64,000 nucleotides of DNA, taken from NCBI GenBank assembly GCA_040080215.1, contig JBEBIT010000008.1, positions 14,487-78,486 of the forward strand. Reading direction: 5' to 3'. The position numbers and the translations under genes are program-made. The notes beneath the pieces were generated by a model. It ran no database searches. It was given only the letters and a program-made list of their open reading frames with translations, and had not been told where the DNA came from. The stretch is from Steroidobacteraceae bacterium (lineage in GTDB: Bacteria; Pseudomonadota; Gammaproteobacteria; Steroidobacterales; Steroidobacteraceae). This document shows, one piece after another, positions 1-50,139 of the stretch; the stretch's first letter is position 1; each line of letters opens with the position of its first letter.

Positions 1-1334
1 GTCTCGGCCTTGTAGTACATGGCCCACGACTCGGCGACCGGCACATAGAACAAGCCGTAGTCCGGGCTGTAGCTCGGCGGCGGCCAATTGGCGGCACCCT
101 GGTTCGCGCTCGAGACCAGCGCGCCCGAGATGTGGCTGTCCTTCTCCGGAATGCGCACCGGCTGGCCCTTTGCGTTGAGCTTCGGTTCCGCCCAGTTGGT
201 CGTTCTCGAGAACTTGGATGTGAGCAGGTGTTCACCGGTCGTGCGATCAACGACAAAGAAATAGCCGTTGCGGGCCGCCGTCATCGCTACCTTGCGCATG
301 CGGCCACCGATCTCGATATCTGCGAGCACCGGCGTCTGCGCGGAGTCCCAGTCATGCGTATCGTTCGGCGAAGTCTGGTAGTACCAGGCCATCTTGCCGG
401 TTTCGACGTTGATCGCGACGAGCGAGCAGGTGTACAGCGCATCCATGTTCCCGCGGACATCGGCGAAATAGGACGGCGACGGATTGCCGGTACCGATGAT
501 GTACAGGTTGGTTTCCGGGTCGTACGAACCGGGTACCCACGGATTGCCGCCGCCGTGGCGAGCAGCGTAGAGGTCTTTCCACGTCTCGAGCCCCGGATCG
601 CCGGCCTTCATCGGGACGGCATACCACTTCCACTGCAATGCGCCGGTTTCGGGATCGAACGACTGCAGGAAGCCCGGCGCATCGAGATCGTTGCCGGCGC
701 CCACCAGGACATGATTGCCGACCACGATGGGCGCGGGTGTCGAGAAATACTGTTCCTCGAAGCTCGCGATCTCGACGTGCCAGCGCTCCTTGCCTGTGGT
801 TGCATCGAGCGACACGAGGTAGTTGTCGGGCGTTTCCATGAATAGGTAGTTGCCCCACATGCCGAGGCCGCGGTTGCCGATATGGGTGCCTCCGCGCGTC
901 TTCCAGTGGTAATGCCACAAAATCTTGCCGCCCCGCGCATCGACCGCCCAGGCGTTGTCGGGCGTGGAGACATACAGGATGCCGTTCACCTGCAGGATGG
1001 ACGCACGGATGTTCGCGACCAGCGCCGCAAACAGCTTGCCCTCACCGACACCGCCGATGTTTACGGGATGGGGGCCGCGATCGCCAGCGCCTGCAACGAC
1101 GCGGGTGCTCCAGGCGAGCGAGAGCTGCGTGACGTTGGATTGGTTGATCTGGTCGAGCGAGCTGTAGCGTTTGCCGCTGTAGTCCCCGGAATAAGTCGGC
1201 CATGAGTCCGGAGCAGGCTTCAGGATGCTGGAGGGATGCAGTCCCTGAGCCGGTTCGGCAGCGAGGAGCGGGGAGCCGAGGGTTACGGCGAAACCCAGGA
1301 AGCATCCGAGCAGGCGATATGCGGTTGTCGTCAT
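1..1334 (-). CDS. PQQ-dependent quinoprotein dehydrogenase (beta-propeller); N-terminal ~444 aa only, the C-terminus runs off the left edge of the window
   Basis: Absent from the ORF track because there is no stop codon inside the window. My own minus-strand translation from the ATG at 1334-1332 gives MTTTAYRLLGCFLGFAVTLGSPLLAAEPAQG...PDSWPTYSGDYSGKRYSSLDQINQSNVTQLSLAWS...ILYVSTPDNAWAVDARGGKILWHY...LVSLDATTGKERWH...SFDPETGALQWKW. This is a signal peptide followed by the repeated W-motif blades typical of PQQ alcohol/sugar dehydrogenases. The start lies 1 nt after the stop of the upstream cytochrome c gene. Confidence 0.85.
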   Translation of the reverse strand, partial: MTTTAYRLLGCFLGFAVTLGSPLLAAEPAQGLHPSSILKPAPDSWPTYSGDYSGKRYSSLDQINQSNVTQLSLAWSTRVVAGAGDRGPHPVNIGGVGEGKLFAALVANIRASILQVNGILYVSTPDNAWAVDARGGKILWHYHWKTRGGTHIGNRGLGMWGNYLFMETPDNYLVSLDATTGKERWHVEIASFEEQYFSTPAPIVVGNHVLVGAGNDLDAPGFLQSFDPETGALQWKWYAVPMKAGDPGLETWKDLYAARHGGGNPWVPGSYDPETNLYIIGTGNPSPSYFADVRGNMDALYTCSLVAINVETGKMAWYYQTSPNDTHDWDSAQTPVLADIEIGGRMRKVAMTAARNGYFFVVDRTTGEHLLTSKFSRTTNWAEPKLNAKGQPVRIPEKDSHISGALVSSANQGAANWPPPSYSPDYGLFYVPVAESWAMYYKAE

Positions 1335-1335
1335 G

Positions 1336-2169
1336 TTATTTGACCGTAACGAGGTAAGCGGTGACGTCGTGGATGTTCTTGTCGGTGTACTTCGGCAGCA
1401 GTGCCTTGTGGCCGACAAGCGGGTCCATGATCTCGACCTTCGGCGAGTCGCCCTTGCGCGTGAAGGTCCGCTGGGCGCCGTCGGGCAGCCGGATCGTCAG
1501 CGTGAACTCATCGATCCGCAGCAGGTCGCCGGTGGCGGTGCCGGTTGTCGTGGTGACACTCGCTCTCGAACAAGTGCCGCTCGCGGGCATCAGCCAGCGC
1601 TGCTGCAGGGGACGCGCCTCGGTGTACTTGGCGCCGATGCCCTTCAAGTCGCCGGTAACCGAGTGGCAGCTGGCGCAGTTCTCGCCGAAGAAGCGCTTGC
1701 CTGCGTTCGCGTTGCCGGTGACGAACTCGGCTGGCCGCATGCGGGCCGGGTCGCGGCTGCTGATCGAGAAGCTGTGCAGGAACTCGGCGATGTCCGCCAT
1801 CTGTTCCTTCGACAGCGAGAACGCGGCCATTGCGGTTCCCGGCACACCCTTGGTCACGATGTCGGAGATCAGCTCGCCTTTCTGGTCCCTCAGTACGAGC
1901 TGCGAACGCAGCAGGCTCGGGCCGCCGTCGCCGCCGCGCGTATCCTTGCCGTGGCAGAAGGCGCAGCCGTTCAACTGGTACAGGGCCGAGCCGCGTTCGA
2001 CGGCCGCCGGATCGGTCGTGCGTTCCGGATAGGCCTGCACTTGCTGGAAGGCGGGGATCTCCGACTCGCATTGCTTGAGGGCCTGGGCAGCCGCGTTGCC
2101 CGACAGCGTGAGCAAAGTGGCGATTGCGGTGCTCAGCTGCAACGTCTTAAGCAATTTCCGGTTGCGCAA
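1336..2169 (-). CDS. Di-haem c-type cytochrome, exported
   Basis: ORF 1336..2424(-). It has two CxxCH motifs (NGCAFCHGK and ENCASCHSV). I place the start at the TTG at 2169-2167, which has an AGGGGAA Shine-Dalgarno 6-7 nt upstream and gives the signal peptide (M)RNRKLLKTLQLSTAIATLLTLSGNAAAQA. It is adjacent to the downstream PQQ dehydrogenase with a 1-nt gap. Confidence 0.85.
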   Translation of the reverse strand: MRNRKLLKTLQLSTAIATLLTLSGNAAAQALKQCESEIPAFQQVQAYPERTTDPAAVERGSALYQLNGCAFCHGKDTRGGDGGPSLLRSQLVLRDQKGELISDIVTKGVPGTAMAAFSLSKEQMADIAEFLHSFSISSRDPARMRPAEFVTGNANAGKRFFGENCASCHSVTGDLKGIGAKYTEARPLQQRWLMPASGTCSRASVTTTTGTATGDLLRIDEFTLTIRLPDGAQRTFTRKGDSPKVEIMDPLVGHKALLPKYTDKNIHDVTAYLVTVK

Positions 2170-2300: not shown

Positions 2301-2312
2301 GTAATCGATTAC
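2301..2312. promoter_or_regulatory. Perfect 12-bp palindrome GTAATCGATTAC; candidate LacI-family operator (site 1)
   Basis: Read directly from the sequence. It is self-complementary with a central CG, which is the architecture of LacI/GalR-family operators. It lies about 130 nt upstream of the cytochrome c start, in the 490-bp divergent intergenic region. Confidence 0.6.
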
Positions 2313-2496
2313 AGGGTTTTAGGGAAGCACCCGAAGCGCGGCAGCGGACACGTTGTTCGCCGCTTGCGCGGGCGTGGACCTTCACGGACTGTTTTGCTGC
2401 GATGCCGCATAGACTCCCTGCCAAACCGGGGCACAGACAAAATCAATTCGTGCTCTGGACATAAACCCCACTTCGCGCGCATATTCCCGACCAAAG

Positions 2497-2508
2497 GTAA
2501 TCGATTAC
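2497..2508. promoter_or_regulatory. Second identical palindrome GTAATCGATTAC; candidate LacI-family operator (site 2)
   Basis: Exact repeat of site 1. It lies about 150 nt upstream of the ATG at 2661 in the same divergent region. Confidence 0.6.
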
Positions 2509-2660: not shown

Positions 2661-3404
2661 ATGATCGACTTCATGGCCATACACCGTCGCTTTCACGATT
2701 CGCGCCTCCGACGCGCTGCCGTTGCGTGGCTCGCGAGCTGCCTTTTGTCGCCGGTCGCGTCTTACGCGATGGCGCCCGCAGCAGAAGCCCAGGATCTTTC
2801 GGGCACCTGGGAAGTGCGCTACGACAGCCAGAGCGTGCCTGTGGCCAGGCTTACTGCAAAAGCCAAGGCGGCCAGCGCGGCCATGGCAGTGAAGGACATC
2901 GAGTCCCGTCGCTGGTGCCGCATCGGCGGCATGCCTTTCCTCATGCTCGAATCCCCGTTGCTGATTATCCGCCAGAGCCGTGCCGAGATCGTGGTCGCAC
3001 CGCAGGTGCAGGCCGTCGCCCGGCACCTCTATACCGATGGCGTCGCCCGTGCCGACCTCAAGGACTTCGATCCCGCCACGAATGGCTACACGGTGGCTCG
3101 CTGGGAAGGCAGCGTGCTGGTAGCGGAAACGAGCGGCTTCTCGGACCTCGGCATCGTCACGATTCCCGGCGGCGGCTATCGCACGGAGAACTCGCGGCTC
3201 GTGGAGCGCTTTCGGGTGCTCGACGGCGGCAAGCGCTTGTCGGTGACGTCCACGTGGACGGATCCGGGTGTCTTTGCGCAGCCCCATACCTATGAGGTCC
3301 GCTATTACCGGGCCGATGCCGGCGCGAGCGCATCCGCGCAGGCCTGCAATCCCTTCGAGGCCGGCCGCGAGGCATTCTTCGCGCCGGCGTTAGGTAAGAA
3401 GTAA
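2661..3404 (+). CDS. Secreted protein of unknown function, family A subtype I (copy A1)
   Basis: ORF 2661..3404. It has an N-terminal hydrophobic leader followed by DLSGTWE. Motifs shared with the paralog at 10679..11419(-) are SRRWC-x3-GMP, RWEGxxLVxET, PGGGYRT, LVERFRV and TWTDPGVFxQPHTY, plus a second Cys near the C-terminus. The start could instead be the ATG at 2673. Confidence 0.75.
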   Translation: MIDFMAIHRRFHDSRLRRAAVAWLASCLLSPVASYAMAPAAEAQDLSGTWEVRYDSQSVPVARLTAKAKAASAAMAVKDIESRRWCRIGGMPFLMLESPLLIIRQSRAEIVVAPQVQAVARHLYTDGVARADLKDFDPATNGYTVARWEGSVLVAETSGFSDLGIVTIPGGGYRTENSRLVERFRVLDGGKRLSVTSTWTDPGVFAQPHTYEVRYYRADAGASASAQACNPFEAGREAFFAPALGKK

Positions 3405-3416
3405 GGAGTCCACACG

Positions 3417-3809
3417 ATGAAGTTCCATTTCGCCGCGGCGCTTGCGCTTGGCTTTTCGGGTGCTGCGTTCGCGCATCATTCGTTCTCCATGTTCGACATG
3501 GACAAGGACGTGACGCTGGAAGGCAGCGTCATCGAATACCGCTTCGGGAATCCGCATTCCCACATCATCATCAAGGTTCCTGCCGGCAAGGCACAGGCAG
3601 AGTACGCCGGCAACTGGGATGTCGAGGGCGGCAGCGCGACCATCATGCGCCGGCAAGGCTGGTCGCGGGAAACCTTCAAGCCGGGTGACGGCATCAAGAT
3701 AGTCGGGCACCCGATGCGCGATGGCACCAAGGGCATTTCACTGTTCTACGCGATCATGCCGGACGGCACCCGCCTGTACCACGACATCGCCCGGCCGAAG
3801 GCCGACTGA
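3417..3809 (+). CDS. Small secreted protein, family B (copy B1); I recall similar proteins annotated as DUF6152, which needs checking
   Basis: ORF 3417..3809, with an AAGGAG Shine-Dalgarno upstream. The signal peptide MKFHFAAALALGFSGAAFA ends in an AxA site and is followed directly by HHSFSMFD. Conserved NPHSH and GHPMRDG motifs are present. The paralog is at 10224..10637(-). Confidence 0.8.
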   Translation: MKFHFAAALALGFSGAAFAHHSFSMFDMDKDVTLEGSVIEYRFGNPHSHIIIKVPAGKAQAEYAGNWDVEGGSATIMRRQGWSRETFKPGDGIKIVGHPMRDGTKGISLFYAIMPDGTRLYHDIARPKAD

Positions 3810-3823
3810 TCTGCGGAGCCAAC

Positions 3824-4597
3824 ATGACCACGCAGACTTCGATGTGGCTGTCCCTCGTGCTTGCGTTGCCGGTGCTGACGGCGACCCAGGCTGTCCATGC
3901 GGCGGCCGCGCCGAACGTCGATCTCAGCGGCTTCTGGGAGCGGCGCGACACGCAGGGCGGCGGCAGCTTCGGCGGCATGCTGGCCAGTTTGCCAAAGGCA
4001 GTGCTCGTGCCGGATTTCGTGCCGCCGCGTGCACCCTCCACGCAGGTTGATCCGCCGAGCACCGGCAAGCCGAATGCGGTCGGGGTGCCGTATATCGTCA
4101 CGACCGGCAACTGCAGCACGAGTGCCAGCCTCAACATTCCCTTCATGATGACCCACTCCACGCCGATCGACATCGTGCAGGGTGCGGACGAAATCCTGAT
4201 CGTTCCTGAAATGCCGGGCGCGCAGCGGATCTACATGGACGGCCGTGCGCATCCCGCGACGGGTCGCGTGGCGCCGACCGGCCTCGGACATTCCGTCGGC
4301 CGATGGGAAGGCAATGAACTCGTTGTCCATACGGTCGGCATGTCGGCGGGGGGAGGCATTCCGGGCGGGGGCTTTCGCACGCCGGAGACCGAGCTCACGC
4401 AGCGCTGGCGTCTCAAGGAAGGTGGCGCACAGCTCGAGGTCGAGTTCACGTGGGTCGATCCCAAGATCTATGCAAAGCCGCATACCTTCTCGCTGACGTA
4501 CTTCCGCATGCCTCAATCGACCTACGCGCTCGAGGAATGGTGCGATTCCGGCGACCCGTTGCAGCGGCAGTCGATCGTCCCCCCGAAGCAGGACTGA
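3824..4597 (+). CDS. Secreted protein of unknown function, family A subtype II (copy A2)
   Basis: ORF 3824..4597. It has a signal peptide followed by VDLSGFWE. Core motifs are RIYMDGRAHP, GHSVGRWEGNELVVHT, PGGGFRT, LTQRWRL and FTWVDPKIYAKPHTF, and the C-terminus is EEWCDSGDP...VPPKQD. The closest paralog is 11428..12264(-), which ends in PPKQE. Confidence 0.8.
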   Translation: MTTQTSMWLSLVLALPVLTATQAVHAAAAPNVDLSGFWERRDTQGGGSFGGMLASLPKAVLVPDFVPPRAPSTQVDPPSTGKPNAVGVPYIVTTGNCSTSASLNIPFMMTHSTPIDIVQGADEILIVPEMPGAQRIYMDGRAHPATGRVAPTGLGHSVGRWEGNELVVHTVGMSAGGGIPGGGFRTPETELTQRWRLKEGGAQLEVEFTWVDPKIYAKPHTFSLTYFRMPQSTYALEEWCDSGDPLQRQSIVPPKQD

Positions 4598-4608
4598 AGC
4601 CGACTCAC

Positions 4609-5556
4609 ATGCCCTTGCTCAATCGACGGGAATTCTCGCTGGGCCTGCTCGCGGCTGCTGCCGCGTGGCGCACCGCAGAGGCGGCCGGCAAGTTGAGCGC
4701 CACGATTGGTGGCGTGCGCGTCGGTGCGATCACCTACAGTTTCCGCGAGGTGCCGCGGACGCCGGGCAAGGACTTCCTCGAGACGGGCCTCGAGAGCTGC
4801 GTGGCATCCGGGCTGGGCGTTGCCGAGCTGTGGGCCACGATGGTCCAGCCCGACCAGCCGCTGCTGCCGCGGGGTGGCCAGTACGAGATCGACCCGGCGA
4901 ATGCCGCGATGGTGAAGGCCCGGGAAGACATTCGTCGTTGGCGCGTCGATACACCGGCATCGTACTGGCAGGGTGTCCGCCGCCGGTTCGACAAAGCCGG
5001 CATCGAGCTGATCGGCTACTCGCTGACGCTGGCCGATGACTTCACCGACGAGGAAATCGACAAAACGCTGCTCGCCGTGCGCGCCATGGGCATCCGCGAC
5101 ATCGGCACGAACCAGACGCGCGTTTCGATGGGCAAGCGCGTTGCGCCCTTCGCTGACAAGCACGGTGTCCGCCTGTGCTTCCACAACCATGCGAATGTCG
5201 ACCATCCGAATGAAGTCGCGACGATTGCCAGCATGGAAGAGGTCCTGGCCCAGTCGAAACACTACATGATCAACCTCGACGTCGGCCATTTCGTGGCCGC
5301 CAACCTCGATCCGGTGGCGTTCATCACCAAGTATCATGGCCGGATCAGCTACCTTCATCTCAAGGACCGCAAGCGCGACAATGGGGCCAACATGCCCTGG
5401 GGTCAGGGGGATACGCCGCTCAAGGAAGTGCTGCAGCTCGTGAAGAAGGAGCGCTATCCGATCCCGTGCCTCATCGAGTACGAATACAAAGGCGAGCAGT
5501 CGCCGCTCGTCGAGGTTGGCAAGTGTGTGGAATACATCCGTCAGGCGCTGGCCTGA
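4609..5556 (+). CDS. Xylose-isomerase-like TIM-barrel enzyme (sugar phosphate isomerase/epimerase family) with a twin-arginine signal
   Basis: Internal ATG at 4609 of ORF 4450..5556. The N-terminus MPLLNRREFSLGLLAAAAAWRTAEAAG is a Tat-type leader. The body carries FHNHANVDHPNE, NLDVGH, LHLKDR and LIEYEY, which are typical of this TIM-barrel family. Confidence 0.8.
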   Translation: MPLLNRREFSLGLLAAAAAWRTAEAAGKLSATIGGVRVGAITYSFREVPRTPGKDFLETGLESCVASGLGVAELWATMVQPDQPLLPRGGQYEIDPANAAMVKAREDIRRWRVDTPASYWQGVRRRFDKAGIELIGYSLTLADDFTDEEIDKTLLAVRAMGIRDIGTNQTRVSMGKRVAPFADKHGVRLCFHNHANVDHPNEVATIASMEEVLAQSKHYMINLDVGHFVAANLDPVAFITKYHGRISYLHLKDRKRDNGANMPWGQGDTPLKEVLQLVKKERYPIPCLIEYEYKGEQSPLVEVGKCVEYIRQALA

Positions 5557-5674
5557 AGGCTTTTCTGTTTTCGATGTATTGATTTGATTGCGTTTTGCAA
5601 CGTGGCCATGCAGGGCAGGGGGCTGTCACTGGCTGGCTTGGATTCAGGAACAATAATCAGGGGAGATCCTGCTC

Positions 5675-7933
5675 ATGACCGAGAAAAGACCGGCTATCCA
5701 TCTTTCGCACCTCACCAGGCTGTGCCTGGGACTCGGTGCGCTTACCTTCACGTCGGCCTCGATGGCGCAAGCGCTCGAGGAAGTGGTCGTCACGGCGTTG
5801 CGCGTCGAGTCGAACGTGCAGAAGACCCCGATCGCGATGGAAGTGCTCGACAGCGACGCACTCAAGGACCAGGGCATCGTCAACGTCGCGACGCTCGCCG
5901 CAGTGAGCCCCAGCGTGAACATCACCGGCTTCGGTGGCGGCACCGTGCTCACGGTGCGCGGTGTCTCGAGCCGTGACACGACCGAGATCGGCGATCCGGC
6001 CGTGGTCGTGAGCGTCGACGGCTTCTACCAGGACCGTTCGTATGCGCTCGGCCTCTCCCAGTACGATCTCGCCCGCATGGAAATCCTGCGCGGACCTCAG
6101 GGCACGCTGTATGGCCGCAATGCGACCGGCGGTGCGATCAACATGTTCACCGTGCGACCGAGCAAGGAAGCCGGCGGCTACGCACAGGCGGACTTCGGCA
6201 ACTACGGTGCGATCAATGCAGAAGGTGCCATCAACGTGCCGTTCGGCGACCGCGTGCAGATGCGGGCGTCGTTTGGTTCGCTGTACCACGACGGGTATCG
6301 CGACGGCGGCTTCTTCGGCAAGATGGACGACGCCAACTCCCGCTCGGGGCGGTTGCAGTTTGCCTTCCAGCCCACCGAAAACCTTGATCTGTGGATCCTC
6401 GCGCAGCACACCAAGCAGACGTCGCTTGGCAACTCCGCGAATCTGAGAGGCTATAACGTCCTGCCGGCGACAACCTGCAACATGGTGGCCGCAGGTGCTG
6501 TACCGGCAAGAACCGGACCCTGCCAGCTGGTCAACCACAGCGCGATTCCCGAGCTCGGTGATCCGCAGGTGTATACGAAGTATTACATGTCGCAGCTCAA
6601 CCTGGATGACACGGTCGTCAAATGGAATGCGACCCTTCGCACGCCGATCGCGACCATCACGTACCTCGGTGGTTACGACCGTCTGGATTGGGATTCCTAC
6701 AATCCGGGAGCCACCTTCCCGAGTCCGCTCAACGTAGCCACCGTGCAAGCGAACTTCGCCACCGTCTACAACCAGACGGAAAAGCCGCGGACGACGAACC
6801 ACGAACTGCGGTTCCAGTCGGTCGACCCGGACGCAAGGTTGACGTGGCAGTTCGGTGCGTTCTACTTCAAGAACGACAACGACCTGGACTCTTTCAACCA
6901 GCGTCCGAACGGCACGGCGAACCCGACGCCGGTCATCCACTTCATCTACGACGTCGGCATCAAGTCGCTGGCCGAGATGGCCCAGGTGGCGTTCAAGGTG
7001 ACGGACGACTTCAAGGTCACGGCCGGCTTCCGGCACAACAAGGACGAGAAGTCGCGCCAGGGTTACTTTGGTGGGTTCCAGTACCTGCCGCCGACGCAGC
7101 CGCTGGTCATCAGCCCCGGAAGCGACATCAGCAAGAACACGTACCACCTCGGCCTCGACTGGCAGCTGAACCCGGACTCGCTCCTCTATGCGAAGTACGG
7201 CACAGGCTACAAGTCGGGCGGCTTCACGGACATCGCGCCGTACGGTCCCGAAGAGATCAAGACCTACGAAGTGGGTTCGAAGAACCGCTTCTTCAACAAC
7301 CAGGTTCAGTTGAACCTGTCGGCCTACCGCAGCGACTACAGCGGCCAGCAGGTGCAACAGATCGTCCAGGGTGGTGGTGGACTCAAGATCGAGAACGCGG
7401 GCGAGACCAAGCTGCAGGGTCTTGAAGCCGAACTCACCATGTCCTCGGACCTTGGACAGCTCGAGTTCAACCTGGCCTACCTCGATGCCGAGTTCACGAA
7501 GTTCGACCTTGCGTACGGTGCGCCCGTGTTCGACGTCACCCGCCAGGCATGGGCCAGTCTTGCGACGGTCAATGTCGACCTCTCGGGCAATCGTCCGCAG
7601 CAGGCCCCGGAGTGGACGATCGGTGCGGCCGTGCAGCGCTCGTTCAATGTCTGGGACGGCGAGCTGACGACGCGTGTGCAGACCAAGTACCAGACGGAGC
7701 AGTTCTACACGTTCTTCAACCGTCCGGACGACATGCAGAAGGCGTATGCCACCATCAACTTCCTCGCGACGTATGCGCCCACCGGCAGTCCGTGGCAGTT
7801 CCAGGCGTACGTGAACAACCTGAGCAACGAAACGGTGTTCTCGAACGCGGGTCCCAACGATCGCTCGTTTGTGTACTCCTACACGTATCAGGCGCCGCGC
7901 ACGTATGGAGGCCGCGTCAGCTACAAGTGGTAA
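5675..7933 (+). CDS. TonB-dependent outer-membrane receptor
   Basis: ORF 5675..7933, 752 aa. It has a signal peptide ending in MAQA and a plug domain (EEVVVTALRVESNVQKTPIAMEVL...LRGPQGTLYGRNATGGAIN). A long beta-barrel follows, with the C-terminal motif RTYGGRVSYKW. Confidence 0.95.
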   Translation: MTEKRPAIHLSHLTRLCLGLGALTFTSASMAQALEEVVVTALRVESNVQKTPIAMEVLDSDALKDQGIVNVATLAAVSPSVNITGFGGGTVLTVRGVSSRDTTEIGDPAVVVSVDGFYQDRSYALGLSQYDLARMEILRGPQGTLYGRNATGGAINMFTVRPSKEAGGYAQADFGNYGAINAEGAINVPFGDRVQMRASFGSLYHDGYRDGGFFGKMDDANSRSGRLQFAFQPTENLDLWILAQHTKQTSLGNSANLRGYNVLPATTCNMVAAGAVPARTGPCQLVNHSAIPELGDPQVYTKYYMSQLNLDDTVVKWNATLRTPIATITYLGGYDRLDWDSYNPGATFPSPLNVATVQANFATVYNQTEKPRTTNHELRFQSVDPDARLTWQFGAFYFKNDNDLDSFNQRPNGTANPTPVIHFIYDVGIKSLAEMAQVAFKVTDDFKVTAGFRHNKDEKSRQGYFGGFQYLPPTQPLVISPGSDISKNTYHLGLDWQLNPDSLLYAKYGTGYKSGGFTDIAPYGPEEIKTYEVGSKNRFFNNQVQLNLSAYRSDYSGQQVQQIVQGGGGLKIENAGETKLQGLEAELTMSSDLGQLEFNLAYLDAEFTKFDLAYGAPVFDVTRQAWASLATVNVDLSGNRPQQAPEWTIGAAVQRSFNVWDGELTTRVQTKYQTEQFYTFFNRPDDMQKAYATINFLATYAPTGSPWQFQAYVNNLSNETVFSNAGPNDRSFVYSYTYQAPRTYGGRVSYKW

Positions 7934-7963
7934 GCCTGGAATAGGGCGCTGTCAGAGACTCCA

Positions 7964-7998
7964 GCCGCGACGTGCTCAAGGCGTCGCGGCTTTTTTTT
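7964..7998 (+). terminator. Rho-independent terminator after the TonB receptor gene
   Basis: A 9-bp GC stem (GCCGCGACG at 7964-7972 pairing with CGTCGCGGC at 7982-7990) is followed by T8 at 7991-7998, about 30 nt after the stop codon. Confidence 0.85.
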
Positions 7999-8039
7999 GC
8001 TCGATGACGGCAGCGATGAACCCATTTGCAAGGTGCAGG

Positions 8040-10202
8040 ATGAAGTACCGGATGCCCGTCGCCGTGTTGGTGGCAACACTCTGTTCCCCGCTGGGTGGGT
8101 GCGATCGCGATGGGGCGTCTGCAGGCCAGGCCGACGCCGATTGGCCCGCGTACGGTGGGCATGAAACCGGCGACCGCTATTCGGGCCTCACGCAGATCAC
8201 GCCTGCCAACGTCACCAGCCTCAAGGTCGCGTGGCGCGTCGATCACGCAGGGACCGGCGAATCCCAGACGCAGCCGCTGGTCGTGGGCGGCACCGTGTAC
8301 ACGTATACGCCGGACCACAAGGTGCTGGCCCTCGATGCCGCTACAGGCGAACGTCGCTGGCAGTTCGATTCCGGACTCGTCGGCACTGGCCCTGCGCGCG
8401 GCCTGACGTGGTGGACGGACGGCAAGACGAGCCGCGTGTTTGCAAGCGTAATGAATTACCTCTTTGCGCTCGATCCTGCCACCGGCACGCCGCTGCAGGA
8501 CTTCGGCGTTCAAGGCGCGGTCGACTTGCGGCAGGGTCTGCGGGGCGACCCCCACGATCACTTCGTCGCGCTGACTTCGCCCGGCATTGTCTACAAGGAC
8601 CTCCTCATCGTCGGCTTCCGCACCAGCGAGACGATGCCTGCGCCGCCCGGCGATATCCGTGCGTACGATGTCCGCACCGGCGAGCTGCGCTGGACTTTCC
8701 ATACCCTGCCTGAGGCCAACGAGCCCGGCGCAGGAAGCTGGCCGGGCGACGCTCGTGCAACATCCGGAGCAGCCAACAACTGGGTAGGCATGGTGATCGA
8801 TGCGGGACGGGGCATCGTCTACGTGCCCACCGGATCCGCGGTGCCCGACTTCATCGGCATCGATCGCAAAGGCGACAACCTGTATGCGAACTCGCTGCTG
8901 GCGCTCGATGCCGCGACGGGCAAGCGCCTGTGGCATTTCCAGCTGGTGCACCACGATATCTGGGACCGCGATCCGCCGTCGCCCCCGGTGCTACTCACGA
9001 TCCGGCGCAATGGCAAGCAGATCGATGCCGTCGCACAGACGACGAAGCAGGGTTTCGTGTTCGTGTTCGATCGCGTGAGCGGCGAGCCGCTGTTTCCGGT
9101 CGAGGAACGCGCCTACCCGGCCAGCTCGCTCCCCGGTGAAGTGGCTTCACCTACGCAGCCCTTTCCGGTGCTGCCCGAACCCATCGCGCGGCAGCGGCTG
9201 ACAGAAGACATGCTGACGACAAGGACGCCTGAGGCCCATGCTGCGGCGCTGGATCGGTTCCGGACAATGCGCAGCGACGGGCAGTTTGTTCCGCTCGCGC
9301 TTGGCAAGCCCACCGTGGTCTTCCCGGGCTTCGACGGGGGAGCCGAGTGGGGCGGCGCCGCTGTGGATCCGCGGTCGGGCGTGCTGTACGTCAATGCGAA
9401 CGATGTGGCGTGGACCGGCGAGCTCGCACCTAACGTACCCGTCACGGGCGTCGCCGCGTCGCTGTACCAGGTACAGTGCGCCGCGTGTCATGGCGTCGAG
9501 CGCAAGGGCTCGCCACCCGCGTTTCCGTCACTCGTCGATGTGGGGCGGCGTCTCCCGGCTGCCGACGTTGTGACGGTCATCCGTGACGGGCGAGGCCGGA
9601 TGCCGCCGTTCGGCGCGCTGGGCGCGGAATCCATTGCCCTGCTCCAGGATTATCTGGTCACCGGCAACGATCGGCCTCTGCCGAGCCCCGTGGCATCCGC
9701 AGGCCCGGTGACTGCAGCACAGGCCGGCAGGGAGCCGATGACGAGGACGCTGCGCAACCCCAGCTCGCCGGGCAAGTACCGCTTCACGGGGTACCAGAAG
9801 TTCCTGGATGCAGACGGCTATCCCGCGATCGTACCCCCGTGGGGAACGCTCAACGCCATCGACCTCAACACCGGAAAGTATTTATGGAAGGTGCCGCTCG
9901 GCGAATATCCTGAGCTGGTGGCGCAGGGCATGAAGGACACGGGGTCGGAAAACTACGGTGGCCCGGTCGTTACCGAGGGCGGGCTGGTGTTCATCGGCGC
10001 GACGGTGTTCGACCACAAGCTGCGCGCATTCGACAGCAGGACCGGGAAGGTGTTGTGGCAGTACGAGCTGCCCTATGCGGGGACCGCGACGCCGGCGGTC
10101 TACAGCGTGGCAGGCAAGCAGTATGTCGTCATTTCCACCAGCAACGCGCGCAACCGCAATGCGCCGCAGGGGAGCGCGCTGATCGCCTTTTCACTTCCGT
10201 GA
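8040..10202 (+). CDS. PQQ-dependent beta-propeller dehydrogenase (glucose/quinate dehydrogenase-like) with an internally inserted c-type cytochrome domain; probable lipoprotein
   Basis: The ATG at 8040 lies downstream of the terminator and is preceded by AGGTGCAGG. The leader MKYRMPVAVLVATLCSPLGGCD contains the lipobox LGGC. The propeller motifs are DWPAYGGHETGDRYSGLTQITPANVTSLKVAWR, ALDAATGERRWQF and ALDAATGKRLWHF. The CAACHG haem site (YQVQCAACHGVERKG...GRMPPFG) sits between propeller segments. Confidence 0.9.
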   Translation: MKYRMPVAVLVATLCSPLGGCDRDGASAGQADADWPAYGGHETGDRYSGLTQITPANVTSLKVAWRVDHAGTGESQTQPLVVGGTVYTYTPDHKVLALDAATGERRWQFDSGLVGTGPARGLTWWTDGKTSRVFASVMNYLFALDPATGTPLQDFGVQGAVDLRQGLRGDPHDHFVALTSPGIVYKDLLIVGFRTSETMPAPPGDIRAYDVRTGELRWTFHTLPEANEPGAGSWPGDARATSGAANNWVGMVIDAGRGIVYVPTGSAVPDFIGIDRKGDNLYANSLLALDAATGKRLWHFQLVHHDIWDRDPPSPPVLLTIRRNGKQIDAVAQTTKQGFVFVFDRVSGEPLFPVEERAYPASSLPGEVASPTQPFPVLPEPIARQRLTEDMLTTRTPEAHAAALDRFRTMRSDGQFVPLALGKPTVVFPGFDGGAEWGGAAVDPRSGVLYVNANDVAWTGELAPNVPVTGVAASLYQVQCAACHGVERKGSPPAFPSLVDVGRRLPAADVVTVIRDGRGRMPPFGALGAESIALLQDYLVTGNDRPLPSPVASAGPVTAAQAGREPMTRTLRNPSSPGKYRFTGYQKFLDADGYPAIVPPWGTLNAIDLNTGKYLWKVPLGEYPELVAQGMKDTGSENYGGPVVTEGGLVFIGATVFDHKLRAFDSRTGKVLWQYELPYAGTATPAVYSVAGKQYVVISTSNARNRNAPQGSALIAFSLP

Positions 10203-10223: not shown

Positions 10224-10637
10224 TTACTCGGCCTTGGGACGAGCGATGTCCGTATACAGCCGCGTGCCGTCCGGCTTGTTGATGTAGAACAGGGCGCCGC
10301 CCTTGTTGCCGTCGCGCAGCGGATGGATCACCGCGTCGATGGGCTCACCGGCCTTCAGGGTCGACTTGGTCCAGCCCTGGCGGCCCATGATGACCGTGCC
10401 GCCGCCGCACTCGAAGTCCCACAGGCCGACCAGCGCCGGGTCGATGCCGGGCGCTGCGTCAACCTTGACGGTCACGTGCACGTGCGGGTTCATCCACTTG
10501 TATTCGACTACCGTGCCCTTCACGGCGACATTCTTGTCCATCTCGAACATGGCAAACGAATGATGGGCGAGGGCCGGCATCGCGATCGCGCCAGCCAGTG
10601 CCAGGGAAGCGAGCCATCGGGAAAGGTTGGGTCTCAT
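10224..10637 (-). CDS. Small secreted protein, family B (copy B2); paralog of 3417..3809
   Basis: Internal ATG at 10637-10635 of ORF 10224..10988(-). The sequence MRPNLSRWLASLALAGAIAMPALA is followed directly by HHSFAMFEMDKNVAVKGTVVEYKWMNPHVHVTVKV and, later, IHPLRDGNKG. Confidence 0.8.
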   Translation of the reverse strand: MRPNLSRWLASLALAGAIAMPALAHHSFAMFEMDKNVAVKGTVVEYKWMNPHVHVTVKVDAAPGIDPALVGLWDFECGGGTVIMGRQGWTKSTLKAGEPIDAVIHPLRDGNKGGALFYINKPDGTRLYTDIARPKAE

Positions 10638-10678
10638 CGCAGTTACTCCGTCAGTAGCCGGGCAGTCCGCTGGCAGTG

Positions 10679-11419
10679 CTATTTCGCGGACGGCGGGTTG
10701 GCAAAGAACTCGGCGCGCTCCTTGTCGAGCGGATCGCAGTCGAGCGTTGTTTGTACTTCGTAGAACTTCGGCGCCCGCGTATAGCGGTACGCGTAGGTGT
10801 GCGGCGTCTTGAAGACCTTGGGGTCCTCCCAGGTGAACGTGACGATCAGCGCATTGCCGTTGTTCGCGAGGCGATAACGTTCGGTGAGCTTGCTGTCCGT
10901 CGTGCGGAACCCGCCTCCGGGCAGCAGCGTCAGGCCCTTGTCGCCGTCGATGCCGACGGTCGTGACGACGAACGTATTGCCTTCCCAATGCCCGACGGAG
11001 TCGCCCGTCGACGTGAAGTCATAGTCGTCGAGGAGCATGTTGTCCTTGCGGTCGAGGTAGATGTGCCTCGGCGTCGCGCGCGTCTCGAAGTTGACCAGGA
11101 CCTCGTGGGCGGACTGGCGGATGTCGATCGGGCGCGGTGAATCCATGGCCATCGGCATGCCGATGAAGTAGCACCACCTGCGGGAGTTCGCATCCTTGGC
11201 CCGGTGTTCGGCAATGACGGCAGGCGTGACGGACGGCTGCAGGTTCGCTTGCGGAATATTGCGGCCGTCGTAGGGGAGTTCCCAGAAGCCGCTGATGTTA
11301 TGCGGATCGAACGACGCAGCCGGTGCCGCAGCCTGGGCAGGCAACACCATCGAGAGCGCCGTCGCCACGGTGGCGGCACGCAGCGAGGCGCGTACGAGAT
11401 TCTTGAGTGCGAATGCCAT
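10679..11419 (-). CDS. Secreted protein of unknown function, family A subtype I (copy A3)
   Basis: The ATG at 11419-11417 (MAFALKNLVRASLRAATVATALSMVLPAQAAAP) is preceded by AGGAG. Motifs present are NISGFWE, SRRWCYFIGMP, GHWEGNTFVVTT, PGGGFRT, LTERYRL, FTWEDPKVFKTPHTY and LDCDP. Confidence 0.8.
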   Translation of the reverse strand: MAFALKNLVRASLRAATVATALSMVLPAQAAAPAASFDPHNISGFWELPYDGRNIPQANLQPSVTPAVIAEHRAKDANSRRWCYFIGMPMAMDSPRPIDIRQSAHEVLVNFETRATPRHIYLDRKDNMLLDDYDFTSTGDSVGHWEGNTFVVTTVGIDGDKGLTLLPGGGFRTTDSKLTERYRLANNGNALIVTFTWEDPKVFKTPHTYAYRYTRAPKFYEVQTTLDCDPLDKERAEFFANPPSAK

Positions 11420-11427
11420 GGACGTCG

Positions 11428-12264
11428 TTACTCCTGCTTGGGCGGAGCCACGCCCTGTGACTGCTTGGGATCCGCGGCGTCGCAGTACCACTCGAACGCG
11501 AGCTGCCTTGGTAGTCCGCGTTCCGCGAGGATCTCGAACGTATGCGGCTTCGTGTAGATCTTCGGGTCCGTGAAGGTGTAGCGCATCGTGAGGCGATTGC
11601 CATCGGGGGACAGGCTGTAGCGCTCGACCAGGACCGTCTCCGGCGTCTTGTAGCCGCCGGCCGGGACACCGCCTGGCGTGAGTCCGACGGTTTCGAACAC
11701 CAGCGCACCGCCTTCATAGCGGCCTACCGAATGGCCGGTCGCGGTCGGCACAAAGCGCTTGAGGTCGGGATGCGGACGGCCGTCCATGTAGATGTTCCGG
11801 CCAAGGCCCGGATTCTCACGGACGATCACGACCTCGTCGCGGTCCTGCACGATGTGGAACGCGGCCGAGTTCGGTTCAATTCCGCCAGGGAAGCCGCACG
11901 TGCCGGCAGTAACCACGTAGGCCTCGCCGTTCTGGTACTTCTTGTTCGGATCCCATGCACCCGTCCGCGGGCCTGCCTTCTTCTCGCGTTCCCGCTGTTC
12001 CGCGTAGGCCGGAGTCAGGGAGGCTTGCGGAAAACCCGCGGCGAGGTTGTCGAAACTGCCGGACCCGGTCGCATCGATGCGAACCCAGGCACCAGTCAGG
12101 TCCGGAATGCCACCGGCCGGCTGTGCCGCGCTTGCGGGTGCGACAGTACCGAGCGCGCCCGCGGCGACCGTGATCGGGATCGCCAGCCACCGTGAGAAGC
12201 GGCGGACAGCAGGCGGACTGCGTCTTGCAATCGTCGCGTTGGTTAGCGAAGCGTGGGCTGGCAT
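11428..12264 (-). CDS. Secreted protein of unknown function, family A subtype II (copy A4)
   Basis: ORF 11428..12303(-). I prefer the ATG at 12264 because GGAG lies about 8 nt upstream. Motifs present are IPDLTGAW, RNIYMDGRPHP, GHSVGRYEGGALVFET, AGGYKTP, LVERYSL, YTFTDPKIYTKPHTF and WYCDAADP...APPKQE. Confidence 0.8.
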   Translation of the reverse strand: MPAHASLTNATIARRSPPAVRRFSRWLAIPITVAAGALGTVAPASAAQPAGGIPDLTGAWVRIDATGSGSFDNLAAGFPQASLTPAYAEQREREKKAGPRTGAWDPNKKYQNGEAYVVTAGTCGFPGGIEPNSAAFHIVQDRDEVVIVRENPGLGRNIYMDGRPHPDLKRFVPTATGHSVGRYEGGALVFETVGLTPGGVPAGGYKTPETVLVERYSLSPDGNRLTMRYTFTDPKIYTKPHTFEILAERGLPRQLAFEWYCDAADPKQSQGVAPPKQE

Positions 12265-12309
12265 TGTGGGTCTCCGGAGGGCTCCATCCAGCGGCCTCGG
12301 CACTGAAAT

Positions 12310-12321
12310 GGAAACGATTAC
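12310..12321. promoter_or_regulatory. Degenerate copy (10/12) of the GTAATCGATTAC palindrome: GGAAACGATTAC
   Basis: Read directly from the sequence. It lies about 46-57 nt upstream of the proposed start of the A4-A3-B2 operon. It has two mismatches, both in one half-site. Confidence 0.35.
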
Positions 12322-12408
12322 ACCGTTACGATGTCGGGAATCTAGCGCAATCGATGCGCAGAGGGCAATGCTGGATCTTCGCTGCTGCAGTGCGATATCG
12401 CGAGGCGG

Positions 12409-13461
12409 TCAGTCGGCCCGGCCGGTCGAGGTACGAACGATCAGCGAATGCGGCAGGACGATGGTGCGCACCGCATCGCCCGACAGGTCGGCCTCGTCCT
12501 GCAGCATCTCGATCATGAGCTGCATGGCCATTTCGCCGATGGCGGCCTGTGGCTGGTGGATCGTGGTCAGCGGCGGGTCGCAGTAGCCGGAAAAGCGGAT
12601 GTCGTCAAAGCCGACGATCGAGATATCGCGGGGTATCCTCAGTCGGGTTTCCTTGATCGCACGAGCAGCGCCGATCGCCATTTCGTCGTTGGAGCAGAAC
12701 ACGCCGGTCGGCTTCATTGGCTTGCCGAGCAGCGTTTTCATCGCGGCATAGCCAGAGGGCGCCGAGAAGTCGCCGTTGACGATGAGTTCCTCGTCGACCT
12801 TGATCTTTGCCTGGGCCATGCATTGCCTGAAGCCGGCAAGCCGGTCCTTGCTCAAGGGGTTGTGCATCGGGCCCGTGATCTTGGCGATGCGCGTGTGCCC
12901 GAGGCGGATCAGGTGCTCCGTTGCCATGGCCGCCGCCGCGACGTTGTCGATCCTCACGTTCGGCAGCTTGATGTGGTCGAAATATTCGCAAGCGGTAACG
13001 ACCGGGATGGATGAGCGCTCGTCGTCCGTCGCATTCTTGAGGATCGAGGGCAGCAGGGCGCCGAGCAGGATCAGGCCATCCGCTTCCTTGCGTGCCAGCA
13101 TGGAGGCATAGCTGTCCAGCCTTTCCTGGTTGCCCTGGCTTTCCCCAAGCAGCACCTTGTAACCGCTCAGGTGGGCGAGGTTCTCGATGCCACGGATGAC
13201 GTTCGAGAAGAACGGGTTATGGATGGAAGGCACGACGACGACGATGCTGTCGCTCTTCTGGCGGCGCAGGCGGCTCGCGAGCGCATTGGGGCGGTAGCCG
13301 GACTTGCGGATTGCGTTCTCGACCCGCTCGCGGGTGGCGGCACGGACGGTGTCCGGGGAGGCCAGGGTCCTGGAGACGGTTGCGACCGAAACCTTGGCAA
13401 CGCGGGCCACGTCCCGGATCGTGGGCGTCTGGCTCGTCTTCGTGCGGGTTCGGCGTGTCAT
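12409..13461 (-). CDS. LacI-family transcriptional regulator
   Basis: ORF 12409..13461(-), 350 aa. It has an N-terminal HTH (TIRDVARVAKVSVATVSRTLASPDTVRAATRERVENAIRKSGYRPNALA) followed by a periplasmic-binding-protein-like sugar-binding fold. Confidence 0.95.
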   Translation of the reverse strand: MTRRTRTKTSQTPTIRDVARVAKVSVATVSRTLASPDTVRAATRERVENAIRKSGYRPNALASRLRRQKSDSIVVVVPSIHNPFFSNVIRGIENLAHLSGYKVLLGESQGNQERLDSYASMLARKEADGLILLGALLPSILKNATDDERSSIPVVTACEYFDHIKLPNVRIDNVAAAAMATEHLIRLGHTRIAKITGPMHNPLSKDRLAGFRQCMAQAKIKVDEELIVNGDFSAPSGYAAMKTLLGKPMKPTGVFCSNDEMAIGAARAIKETRLRIPRDISIVGFDDIRFSGYCDPPLTTIHQPQAAIGEMAMQLMIEMLQDEADLSGDAVRTIVLPHSLIVRTSTGRAD

Positions 13462-13654
13462 TTTTGTGGCAAGTCACAGCGGGGACCCATTGTTGCGGAT
13501 GCCCGTATACGCTGCAATGGCAAGGGACGTTTGACAGCGGTGTCAGTCGCGCTGCAAGCTCCCGCGGGCCTGCCGGTCGCGTAATTGGGGATGCGCTGAC
13601 CCGGCGCTGCGGGTCGCGGCGCAGTGGATAATCGAAGTCCTTGTCCCCACTGGC

Positions 13655-19369: not shown

Positions 19370-19508
19370 GCAGACAACTCCGGATGAAAACAGGCTGCGG
19401 GCGCAATGTTGACAGCGCTGTCTAGGCCACGCAAGCTGCATCAAACAAATACGGGTGTCACGCCTGATGCCCGCGACAACACCAAGGTTTGCACACGGAG
19501 GGGAACCC

Positions 19509-28249: not shown

Positions 28250-28377
28250 GGACTGGCTCCCCCTCAAGGCATGCCCCCGCCTCTGTCTGGCTGAGCGGAG
28301 GCCGCGCCGCATTTCAGCACAACAGGACAAGGATCGGTTTACCGGCAGATCGCCCGCCGCGCCAGTGGAGGGCGGGA

Positions 28378-28391
28378 TGTAATCGATTCCA
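28378..28391. promoter_or_regulatory. Near-palindrome TGTAATCGATTCCA, related to the GTAATCGATTAC sites
   Basis: Read directly from the sequence. It matches the perfect sites at 11 of 12 core positions. It lies in the divergent AraC / MFS intergenic region. Confidence 0.4.
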
Positions 28392-28587
28392 ATTGTGCCA
28401 CGCCCTGCGCGGAACCGGAACGGCACTGTGCAGGTCGAGGCAAACTCTTGAGCAAACCTGAGCAAGCCCCGGCAGACCGCCTGTGGTGCCATGCGTCGGC
28501 TGGCGGAAAGGCACGCTGGGCACCGCCGGCAGACCGGGGGCCGGGTCAAATGAAGAGCCTGAGAGCGTAGAGGTCCCAAAGGAAACC

Positions 28588-43338: not shown

Positions 43339-44313
43339 ATGAAACCCATGGAATACCCGCGCCCGTTCGCACTGTCAGTCCTTCTCTGCCTGTTGGCTGG
43401 GGCCTCTGCGTCCGCGGCGACCTATCCTTTGCCCGCCGAGGCCGACTCGGTCGTCGGCGAGATCCAGTATGTAGTCACCCGATACGAGGACACCCTGCTC
43501 GATATCGGCAGGCGTTTCGGCATCGGCTACGAAGAAATCGTGAATGCCAATCCCGGGGTTGACGCCTGGGTTCCGGGCACTGGCGTGCGGGTCACCATTC
43601 CTTCCCGTTTCATCCTTCCCGACGCACCCCGCGAGGGTATCGTCGTGAACCTGCCCGAACACAGGCTCTATTACTTCCCGAAGCCGAAGGCGGGGGAGCC
43701 TGCTGTGGTGCAGACCTATCCGGTCAGCGTCGGCAAGGAAGACTGGACGACGCCCGTGGGCGTTACTCGAGTCGTCGACAAGCGAGTGCGTCCGACGTGG
43801 TACCCGCCCGAATCCGTCCGCGCAGAGCATGCAGCCCAAGGCCGGTTCCTGGCCAAGGCGGTGCCACCGGGGCCTGACAATCCGCTGGGCGAGTTCGCAA
43901 TGCGCTTGGGCTTGCCGGGCGGCGCCTATCTGATCCATGGCACCAACAAGCCCACGGGTGTTGGCATGCCGGTCACGCACGGCTGCATCCGCATGTTCCC
44001 CGAGGACATCGAGAACGTATTCCAGCAAGTGCCGGTGAATACAACTGTCCGGATCCTGCACCAGCCGAGCAAGATGGGATGGCTAGGGGACAATCTGTAC
44101 CTGGAAGTACACGGCATGCTGGAAGGGCAGAAAGACCCAGAGACCTACGGGCTCACCCAGTTGACGCGCGCGGTGGTGGCGGCCACGAAGGATCGGCCGG
44201 TGCAGCTCGACTGGAAGCATGCAGAGCAGGTTTTCGCCAAGGCCACCGGCGTTCCGGAGCCGCTCTCGCACCTGCCTCCCGTGGTTGCAAGTACAGAAAG
44301 CGGCGCTCGCTAG
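43339..44313 (+). CDS. Periplasmic L,D-transpeptidase (LysM + YkuD domains; ErfK/YbiS/YcfS-like)
   Basis: It has a signal peptide and a LysM segment (YVVTRYEDTLLDIGRRFGIGYEEIVNANPGV). The YkuD catalytic motif is IHGTNKPTGVGMPVTHGCIRM. Confidence 0.9.
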   Translation: MKPMEYPRPFALSVLLCLLAGASASAATYPLPAEADSVVGEIQYVVTRYEDTLLDIGRRFGIGYEEIVNANPGVDAWVPGTGVRVTIPSRFILPDAPREGIVVNLPEHRLYYFPKPKAGEPAVVQTYPVSVGKEDWTTPVGVTRVVDKRVRPTWYPPESVRAEHAAQGRFLAKAVPPGPDNPLGEFAMRLGLPGGAYLIHGTNKPTGVGMPVTHGCIRMFPEDIENVFQQVPVNTTVRILHQPSKMGWLGDNLYLEVHGMLEGQKDPETYGLTQLTRAVVAATKDRPVQLDWKHAEQVFAKATGVPEPLSHLPPVVASTESGAR

Positions 44314-44502
44314 CCTCGCTGGCTGCCGCGCTCCGCGGCGGACTGAACTGCCCTATCGGCAAACTCTGGCTGCGTTCGCTTGCGGCGCTGGTACACTGCG
44401 GGCCGCGGGTCCTGCGGTTCTGATCTGTCCATACCTATTGGGGTTAGTCCACGGTGATGTCCGTGGGGCCCGCCTATCCCCCCCCAACTAGAAGACTCCC
44501 CT

Positions 44503-44540
44503 CCCGAAAACGAAAACGCCGCGAGGTTTCCCCCGCGGCG
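44503..44540 (-). terminator. Rho-independent terminator of the lipoprotein gene
   Basis: On the minus strand the hairpin CGCCGCG..CGCGGCG (44517-44540) is followed by TTTTCGTTTTCGGG, about 30 nt after the stop. Confidence 0.8.
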
Positions 44541-44569
44541 CTCGTAGAAAGACCTGAAAACGAGTCGAA

Positions 44570-44881
44570 TTACTTCGACTGCGTCTGCTTGAACATGCGG
44601 TCGATCTTCTCGTTGGTGGCATCGCAGCAGGCCTGGCTGGCCTGGGCAGCCGTCAACGCACGGTTGGCGGCATTCTGCGCGCCATCCGCAGCGGTGCGGG
44701 CAGCAGCAGCTGCTGCAGCAGCGGCATCGGCAGCAGACTTTGCAGCTGCAGCATCCTGCACGCCCTTGTCAGCAGTCGCCTTGACGGCATTCAACTGCTC
44801 GGTGGTTACGCAGCCCGTGGCGGCGACGAGGAAGAGGGCAGCGACGCCCACCTTCAGGGTGTTGGCAACAGTATTTTTCAT
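44570..44881 (-). CDS. Alanine-rich outer-membrane lipoprotein with a C-terminal Lys (Lpp/OprI-like)
   Basis: 103 aa. It has the lipobox LVAATGC and an Ala-rich coiled-coil-like body. The C-terminus DRMFKQTQSK ends in Lys, like Braun lipoprotein and Pseudomonas OprI. The upstream region is AT-rich and the gene has its own terminator. Confidence 0.75.
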   Translation of the reverse strand: MKNTVANTLKVGVAALFLVAATGCVTTEQLNAVKATADKGVQDAAAAKSAADAAAAAAAAARTAADGAQNAANRALTAAQASQACCDATNEKIDRMFKQTQSK

Positions 44882-45158
44882 CTTCGTTCCCCTCTTGCTG
44901 GGTCAGAGTTTGGATCAAGTAAAAGCTTCTTCTTAACTCGCCGTGGGCAGAATCGTCCCTTCCACGAATCCCCCGCATCACCTGCGAGCAGGTACTGCGG
45001 GATGAGTCGATGTGGAGAATACAAGATTGCAGCGGTGCAATAAAGCTTATGTTATGAACCGTCGGCAGACGGCGACATAAAAAGCTGCGGGATTCCAGCT
45101 GCTTGCGAGGTGTAGGATTGCGCTGACTCTGCGAAGGGCGAACCCTACCCGCTAGAGG

Positions 45159-45611: not shown

Positions 45612-45678
45612 GGCGTCAGTCCGTTGTATTCGCAAGCGTCAGGCGGGACCGTGGAATTCACGGTCCCGCCTGGGCGAG

Positions 45679-50125: not shown

Positions 50126-50139
50126 GGTTGACTCAACGA

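Follow-up and report, generated by a model that had tools for sequence, protein, structure and literature searches.

Two identical copies of the perfect 12-bp palindrome GTAATCGATTAC, lying 196 bp apart (start to start) in one divergent promoter region of a Steroidobacteraceae bacterium, are very probably operators of LacI1, the LacI-family regulator encoded at 12409-13461 on the minus strand of the same window. The window is the whole 64,000-nucleotide stretch that was analysed, C50:14487-78486 of the genome under study (G000, an assembly of 3.75 Mb in 169 contigs). The same palindrome adjoins relatives of LacI1 in dozens of distant bacteria, and for this reason the two copies are almost certainly LacI1 sites. 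Hereafter M1 denotes the GTAATCGATTAC-type motif and M2 a second, TGACAGCGYTGTCA-type motif; none of the palindromic sites is assigned a strand.

The two copies are found at 2301-2312 and 2497-2508, exactly where the earlier note had placed a pair of identical perfect palindromes 196 bp apart. They have a stretch of 13 nt in common (GTAATCGATTACA) and otherwise unrelated flanks, and a longer duplicated segment or mobile element as their source was rejected, only these 13 nt being common to both. In the whole 3.75-Mb assembly there are two exact copies of GTAATCGATTAC, both in this spacer, while base composition predicts 0.045 genome-wide and 1e-5 in the spacer, in line with the earlier judgement that two exact 12-mers in some 490 bp are unlikely by chance. 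When up to two mismatches were allowed, 9 matches were found in the window against 0.77 expected, a number reached by none of 100 shuffles, and a look-elsewhere control gave only six pairs of identical perfect 12-bp palindromes within 500 bp of each other genome-wide. The possibility, raised beforehand, that the palindrome is a dispersed genome-wide repeat unrelated to promoters was rejected as well: the only two exact copies in G000 lie in a promoter spacer, and among 40 relatives 7 have one copy each and 33 have none. A non-regulatory reading, by which the palindrome would be a chance repeat, a mobile or dispersed remnant, or the target of some unrelated protein, for example a restriction-modification enzyme, can draw on nothing beyond the palindromic form and the 6-bp palindrome ATCGAT within the core. 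It is scarcely credible given two copies where 0.045 are expected, flanks that are unrelated, a spacer with no Rfam match (no riboswitch or known RNA at E up to 1), and conservation of the palindrome at orthologous promoters and beside LacI1 homologues across classes.

Another perfect 12-bp palindrome of G000, TTTGCCGGCAAA, occurs three times within 230 bp at C58:1606, 1708 and 1833, and twice within 90 bp at C19:1661 and 1750; these repeats could represent a further operator array or a repeat element.

Both M1 copies lie in the 491-bp spacer (2170-2660) between the divergent cytochrome c/PQQ and A1 operons, as had been proposed, because the cytochrome c gene most likely starts at 2169, and A1 starts at 2661. 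The leftward target operon begins with a di-haem cytochrome c (1336-2169, minus strand), whose reading frame is open up to 2442 and whose start is most likely the TTG at 2169, with an AGGGGA ribosome site 6 nt upstream and a normal resulting signal peptide, MRNRKLLKTLQLSTAIATLLTLSGNAAAQA. It is followed by a PQQ-type propeller (3-1418, minus strand, from 1418 leftward past the window start), for which the best NCBIfam model is TIGR04528, "acido-empty-quinoprotein group A", at 581 bits (cut-off 650); going by the family name, propellers of this type may be without PQQ binding. The rightward target operon (2661-10202, plus strand), taken as such from common strand and short gaps, comprises A1 (start ATG at 2661; no Pfam family matched), a DUF6152 protein (B1), A2, a Tat-exported xylose-isomerase-like TIM barrel (TIM1), a TonB-dependent receptor and a PQQ quinohaemoprotein. 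Further along the window are the A4-A3-B2 operon (10224-12303, minus strand; B2 is again DUF6152) and LacI1, which is divergent from a cytoplasmic TIM barrel (TIM2) and a GFO/IDH/MocA oxidoreductase.

The putative operator site 1 (2299-2314, core 2301-2312; PWM score 24.3 bits) is found 132 bp upstream of the first codon of cytochrome c, and we assign it to the cytochrome c/PQQ-propeller operon. The putative operator site 2 (2495-2510, core 2497-2508; 26.0 bits, the top PWM match of the genome) precedes the A1 ATG by 153 bp, and both sites thus fall within -400 to +100 of a start codon, in predicted promoter regions. For the A1 operon a sigma-70-like promoter is predicted at 2456-2485 on the plus strand (TGGACA, 18 nt, CATATT), and site 2 begins 11 nt downstream of its predicted -10, which would be the classic position of a repressor. 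The -35/-10 pair is also present in the sister genomes G003 (AGACAA, 16 nt, CATATT) and G004 (GGACAA, 16 nt, CATATT), so that (T/G)GACA(A), 16-18 nt, CATATT is conserved when the upstream regions on the A1 side are aligned, and the palindrome stands 1-11 bp further downstream in each of the three genomes. For cytochrome c, no promoter could be predicted with confidence, and aligning the three upstream regions with MAFFT gave no information; only in G000 and G004 is the palindrome immediately followed by a TAnnAT element.

It has been established that LacI/GalR operators are even palindromes of 16-22 nt with a central CG, located in promoter regions (Ravcheev et al. 2014, PMC4052901). The 12-bp core of M1 is an even-length perfect inverted repeat centred on CG within a full motif of about 16 bp (consensus aTGTAATCGATTACAt), and the centre-CG architecture that the earlier note had recognised agrees with LacI/GalR operators in every sequence-level feature given in that survey. 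Two LacI-family genes are encoded in the whole assembly. LacI1 is, as had been stated, the only one of the window, and LacI2 (C50:4963-6006; 31% identity to LacI1) is encoded on the same contig, 8 kb before the window begins. LacI1 (Pfam PF00356, PF13377, PF00532) consists of a LacI helix-turn-helix (PF00356, residues 14-59) and a periplasmic-binding-protein-like effector domain, and it has the hinge-helix leucine that, together with the helix-turn-helix, characterises a LacI-family regulator. Its recognition helix is VSVATVSR and its hinge YRPNALASRL; the recognition helix of LacI2 is VSIKTVSR. Orthologues of LacI1 (88-89% identity) are present in G002, G003 and G004 and absent from G001 and G005.

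Palindrome and regulator are also linked outside the genus. Eighty loci with LacI1 homologues were fetched, 77 of them from outside the genus (36-59% identity) and spread over Gamma-, Alpha- and Betaproteobacteria, including Dyella, Luteibacter, Rhodanobacter, Frateuria, Inquilinus, Microvirga, Tranquillimonas, Salinarimonas, Rhodomicrobiaceae and a Comamonadaceae MAG. The loci were scanned with a 16-bp PWM trained on 18 sites; scores of 19 bits or more counted as matches, and the 400 bp preceding the regulator gene as its upstream region. An M1 match was found upstream of the regulator in 68 of the 77 loci, many of which are closely related Rhodanobacteraceae and not independent, leaving about 8 independent lineages. 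In the 400-bp upstream regions (30 kb in all) there were 110 matches against 5 in the other 1.35 Mb, an enrichment of about 1000-fold; the 5 matches elsewhere fall in three MAGs, two from Steroidobacteraceae and one from an uncultured gammaproteobacterium, and three of the 5 are in the MAG L075, before homologues of GFO, the TonB receptor and the PQQ protein. Across the homologue loci, the 16-bp palindrome ATGTAATCGATTACAT is the consensus. The Rhodanobacteraceae (Dyella, Luteibacter, Rhodanobacter, Frateuria) have two sites, ATGTATTCGATTACAT and ATGTAATCCATTACAT, 90-150 bp apart, and Inquilinus has GTACAATCGATTACAT; Microvirga, Tranquillimonas, Salinarimonas, the Rhodomicrobiaceae MAG and several alphaproteobacterial MAGs have exact sites or sites with one mismatch. 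The sites of the Comamonadaceae MAG and an Acetobacteraceae MAG, with 3 mismatches in the 12-bp core, score below 19 bits and stand outside the 68. The homologues carry the recognition helix VSVATVSR or VSTATVSR, and their helix and hinge match those of LacI1.

In Dyella (L102) the neighbours of the LacI1 homologue are a TIM barrel, a GFO oxidoreductase, a GMC oxidoreductase and an MFS transporter; in L115, an alphaproteobacterial MAG, they are a TIM barrel, a GFO oxidoreductase and an ABC transporter. A distant Steroidobacteraceae MAG (L075, DATEJM010000047.1) encodes a LacI1 homologue of 48% identity in the row GFO-TIM, TonB receptor-LacI, PQQ quinohaemoprotein, with M1 at 5357, 7566 and 11151, one before each unit; because M1 precedes each unit there, the inclusion of receptor and PQQ protein in the M1 regulon is older than the genus. 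In these three loci, the ones examined in detail, the cassette of the LacI1 group is a TIM barrel, a GFO oxidoreductase and a transporter, which is the likely pathway context. According to two reports, TIM-barrel/GFO enzymes act in the oxidation-elimination of levoglucosan and glycosides (PMC7676230; bioRxiv 10.1101/2024.03.25.586180).

In this genus the region upstream of LacI1 itself differs from those 68 loci in having no M1, and M2 in its place, so that LacI1 is evidently not autoregulated through M1 here. M2, a TGACAGCG(Y)TGTCA palindrome, is found upstream of both LacI1 and LacI2 in 4 of the 4 genus genomes that have both. In the window it occurs as TGACAGCGGTGTCA at 13532-13545, in the LacI1/TIM2 spacer 71 bp upstream of the LacI1 start, as TGACAGCGCTGTCT at 19410-19423, upstream of a third Tat-exported TIM-barrel gene, and as TGACAGCGCTGCCA at 2636-2649, upstream of A1 and 12 bp from its start codon, this last being a probable LacI2 site; a further copy lies at C50:6056 of G000, and M2-like sites are present in the same promoter regions of G003 and G004. 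The presence of M2 before LacI1 raises the question of whether the assignment should be reversed, with LacI2 binding the palindrome and LacI1 binding TGACAGCGYTGTCA before its own gene. LacI2 is indeed linked to the locus in every genus genome with LacI1, and autoregulation has been recorded for 72% of LacI-family regulators (PMC4052901), which would make the motif at the LacI1 promoter, M2, the LacI1 site. However, homologues of LacI2 from other families (G036, G035 and G029; 44-51% identity) carry M2 directly upstream and never M1, M2 precedes LacI2 itself in 4/4 genomes, and it is the LacI1 homologues that carry M1, LacI1 keeping their recognition helix and LacI2 having a different one. On the upstream motifs of the homologues and the recognition helix, LacI2 was rejected as the binder of the palindrome, a reversal that we regard as very improbable.

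It is less improbable, though still unlikely, that LacI1 reads both M1 at its targets and M2 at its own promoter, sharing M2 with LacI2. The two motifs agree at 4 of 7 half-site positions (TG..A.C|G) and co-occur in the same promoter regions of G000, G003 and G004, but the positions at which they differ (±5, ±4 and ±2) are the discriminating ones in the LacI family, and all the data are accounted for if each of the two regulators has one of the two motifs. The data thus suggest the simple mapping of M1 to LacI1 and M2 to LacI2, with LacI1 and part of its regulon putatively also under LacI2.

With M1 assigned to LacI1, the sister genomes show how the sites are distributed among operons. The earlier note had proposed asking whether orthologous loci keep the palindrome, and G003 and G004 do keep M1 at the same operons despite rearrangement. 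The G003 locus has been rearranged, with a separate site at each of A1, cytochrome c and A4: an exact copy lies 46 bp from A1 in the A1 operon, and GTAACCGATTAC is found about 185 bp upstream of the start in the cytochrome c operon, 11 kb away. G004, a complete genome, is without A1-B1-A2 and has one exact palindrome between cytochrome c and TIM1. Site 2 aligns as a conserved island with the copies upstream of the G003 A1 orthologue and of G004 TIM1, and upstream of the A4 orthologue G004 has an identical GGAAACGATTAC and G003 has GTAAACGATTCC. G001 and G005, which are without LacI1, are also without an exact copy of the palindrome, and G002, of which the assembly is 77% complete, has LacI1 and only weak M1 sites.

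The plasticity of the locus can be seen in G003:C4:16000-41000 (L050-L052) and G004:C1:685000-710000 (L053-L054). The cytochrome c/PQQ operon has a new position in G003, and so has the TIM2-GFO pair, which is now divergent from LacI2; throughout the plastic locus of the two genomes each operon has retained its own operator. In G004 the operator centres a 26-bp perfect palindrome, CATATTAGTAATCGATTACTAATATG (G004:C1:699895-699920), with a -10-like CATATT on each side, and this single operator may serve two overlapping divergent promoters.

The distribution of sites bears directly on whether the two copies act as a cooperative pair, in which one repressor assembly would bridge both sites and loop the 196-bp spacer in the manner of lac O1-O3 or gal OE-OI. 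Two identical sites, putatively of high affinity, in one spacer would suit such an arrangement, as would the Rhodanobacteraceae loci with their two sites 90-150 bp apart. On the other hand, the G004 spacer has a single site, the G003 operons and their sites are 11 kb apart, and 196 bp corresponds to 18.7 helical turns, which puts the sites out of phase. In addition, dimeric CcpA and PurR can be aligned with LacI1 over its full length, the C-terminus of LacI1 ending where theirs end without a tetramerisation extension. Lacking both the tetramerisation helix and conservation of the pairing, a conserved lac-type looping pair was rejected, and looping across the spacer appears improbable. The earlier note had spoken of an operator pair for the LacI regulator; what stands is that these are very probably LacI1 operators (68 of 77 homologue loci from about 8 lineages, the recognition helix, the sister genomes), and the pair gives way to one operator per promoter.

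Beyond sites 1 and 2, a PWM scan of G000 places a few further sites in the same regulon. The scan gave seven matches of at least 20 bits (the next best having 16.9), five of them on this 78-kb contig, and is partly circular because 4 of the 18 training sites come from G000 and 4 more from G003 and G004. A weaker putative operator (12308-12323; 23.0 bits), with GGAAACGATTAC at 12310-12321, is located between the LacI1 stop codon and the A4-A3-B2 operon and is conserved. A candidate site, ATGTAATCGATTCCAA at 28377-28392 (25.9 bits), falls in the AraC/MFS spacer, with the MFS gene beginning some 90 bp further on at 28483; the MFS orthologues of G003 and G004 are not preceded by any M1 site, and the candidate is therefore putatively lineage-specific or non-functional. 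Both had been proposed as weaker copies, and both were recovered, the first with 10/12 identical positions and the second with 11/12 (GTAATCGATTCC), the second at 28379-28390 rather than 28378-28391. Two unlinked matches precede Tat-exported xylose-isomerase-like TIM barrels of the same PF01261 family as the TIM barrel of the target operon, namely C76:14808, about 10 bp upstream of the gene at C76:13837-14784, and C131:8833, about 45 bp upstream of that at C131:8895-9854. The C76 site is kept in the G002 orthologue, which has an in-frame TAG, and not in G003; for the C131 gene no clear orthologue with upstream sequence was found in the sister genomes. Judged from sequence, the set of genes picked out by the scan is functionally coherent.

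The match at 48731 (21.8 bits) is located inside a PilY1-like gene and looks like a chance occurrence; this gene, of the PilY1/VWA type, encodes 1175 aa at 45679-49206 on the minus strand, and the surrounding 44300-52500 has lower third-position G+C and few confident reading frames. As operators, 48733, within this PilY1-like gene, and C50:12533, within another gene, were treated as chance, C50:12533 not being conserved in G003 or G004, and the copies with 2 mismatches at 3528, 8448 and 10500 were likewise set aside because they are intragenic and have low PWM scores.

A full-text literature search for the 12-mer returned only Staphylococcus and Borrelia papers and no description of this regulator group or motif. 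The sites resemble the LacI/GalR operators reconstructed previously (PMC4052901) in their setting at putative sugar-utilisation promoters, in having the regulator in the locus and in the conservation of the motif with an orthologous group of regulators, and differ from them in that LacI1 does not control its own gene through M1 in this genus. Among solved structures, CcpA of Firmicutes (E 6e-61; structures 1rzr, 1zvv and 3oqm-o) is nearest to LacI1; its recognition helix VSMATVSR and hinge YRPNAVARGL are nearly identical to those of LacI1. M1, as TGTAATCGATTACA, also agrees with the consensus of CcpA cre sites, WTGNAANCGNWNNCW, and ATTGTAATCGATTACATT appears in PMC9598941 as the S. aureus hla cre. 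Because of this likeness to CcpA and the match to the hla cre, it is physically plausible that a DNA-binding domain of the LacI1 type reads M1. LacI1 nevertheless differs from CcpA in being gammaproteobacterial and putatively local rather than global, with nothing pointing to an HPr-Ser-P corepressor, and it scores 233.8 bits with the ccpA equivalog model against a cut-off of 442.35.

The best-scoring NCBIfam model for LacI1 is that of E. coli CytR, at 341.9 bits, below the cut-off of 436. CytR depends on CRP and binds octamer half-sites with loose spacing, unlike the tight perfect palindromes described here. The operator core of Cra/FruR is TGAATCGATTCA; it shares length and the central ATCGAT with M1, and the outer bases are GTAAT in Cra and TGAAT here. 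The Cra model gives 112.8 bits with LacI1 against a cut-off of 385, and since all three scores lie below their cut-offs, LacI1 is not an equivalog of CcpA, CytR or Cra.

The sites are observed to be rare, conserved and found together with LacI1 homologues; from this we infer a switch of an ordinary kind, with putative binding, repression, promoter positions and effector. A LacI1 dimer would sit on each palindrome with one helix-turn-helix per half-site and the hinge helices at the central CG. At site 2, directly downstream of the -10 of the A1 promoter, bound repressor would block initiation or promoter escape, and at site 1 it would exert the same block on the divergent cytochrome c/PQQ operon; a sugar-like effector bound by the C-terminal domain would free the repressor from DNA. 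The regulon would comprise the two divergent operons, the A4-A3-B2 operon (through the 12308 site), the two unlinked Tat-exported TIM-barrel genes and perhaps the MFS gene at 28483.

Tentatively, and with somewhat less than even confidence, the two regulators may form a two-tier cascade in which LacI2, acting through TGACAGCGYTGTCA, is the upper tier and LacI1, acting through GTAATCGATTAC, gates the exported machinery. LacI2 would control its own gene, LacI1, the cytoplasmic TIM2-GFO pair and the third TIM-barrel gene, and would co-repress the A1 operon from its site 12 bp before the start codon. LacI1 would gate the TonB receptor, the two PQQ propellers, the cytochrome c, the Tat-exported TIM barrels and the His-His DUF6152/barrel modules. 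If the cassette of TIM barrel, GFO oxidoreductase and transporter is ancestral, this genus would have shifted it to LacI2 and recruited M1 to a periplasmic oxidation system. If the cascade is true, the M1 regulon would define which uncharacterised proteins share one periplasmic glycoside-oxidation pathway.

While the switch itself is textbook, its value lies in the handle that it provides on the genes controlled. M1 links the uncharacterised DUF6152/barrel modules with a TonB receptor, two PQQ-type propellers, a cytochrome c and several Tat-exported xylose-isomerase-like TIM barrels, and by joining these genes in one regulon it supports the idea of one periplasmic pathway; M1 thus putatively marks the genes of an uncharacterised periplasmic sugar-oxidation system. 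The conservation of the regulator-motif pair from Alpha- to Gammaproteobacteria points to a widespread, unnamed LacI subfamily, of which the effector could reveal the substrate.
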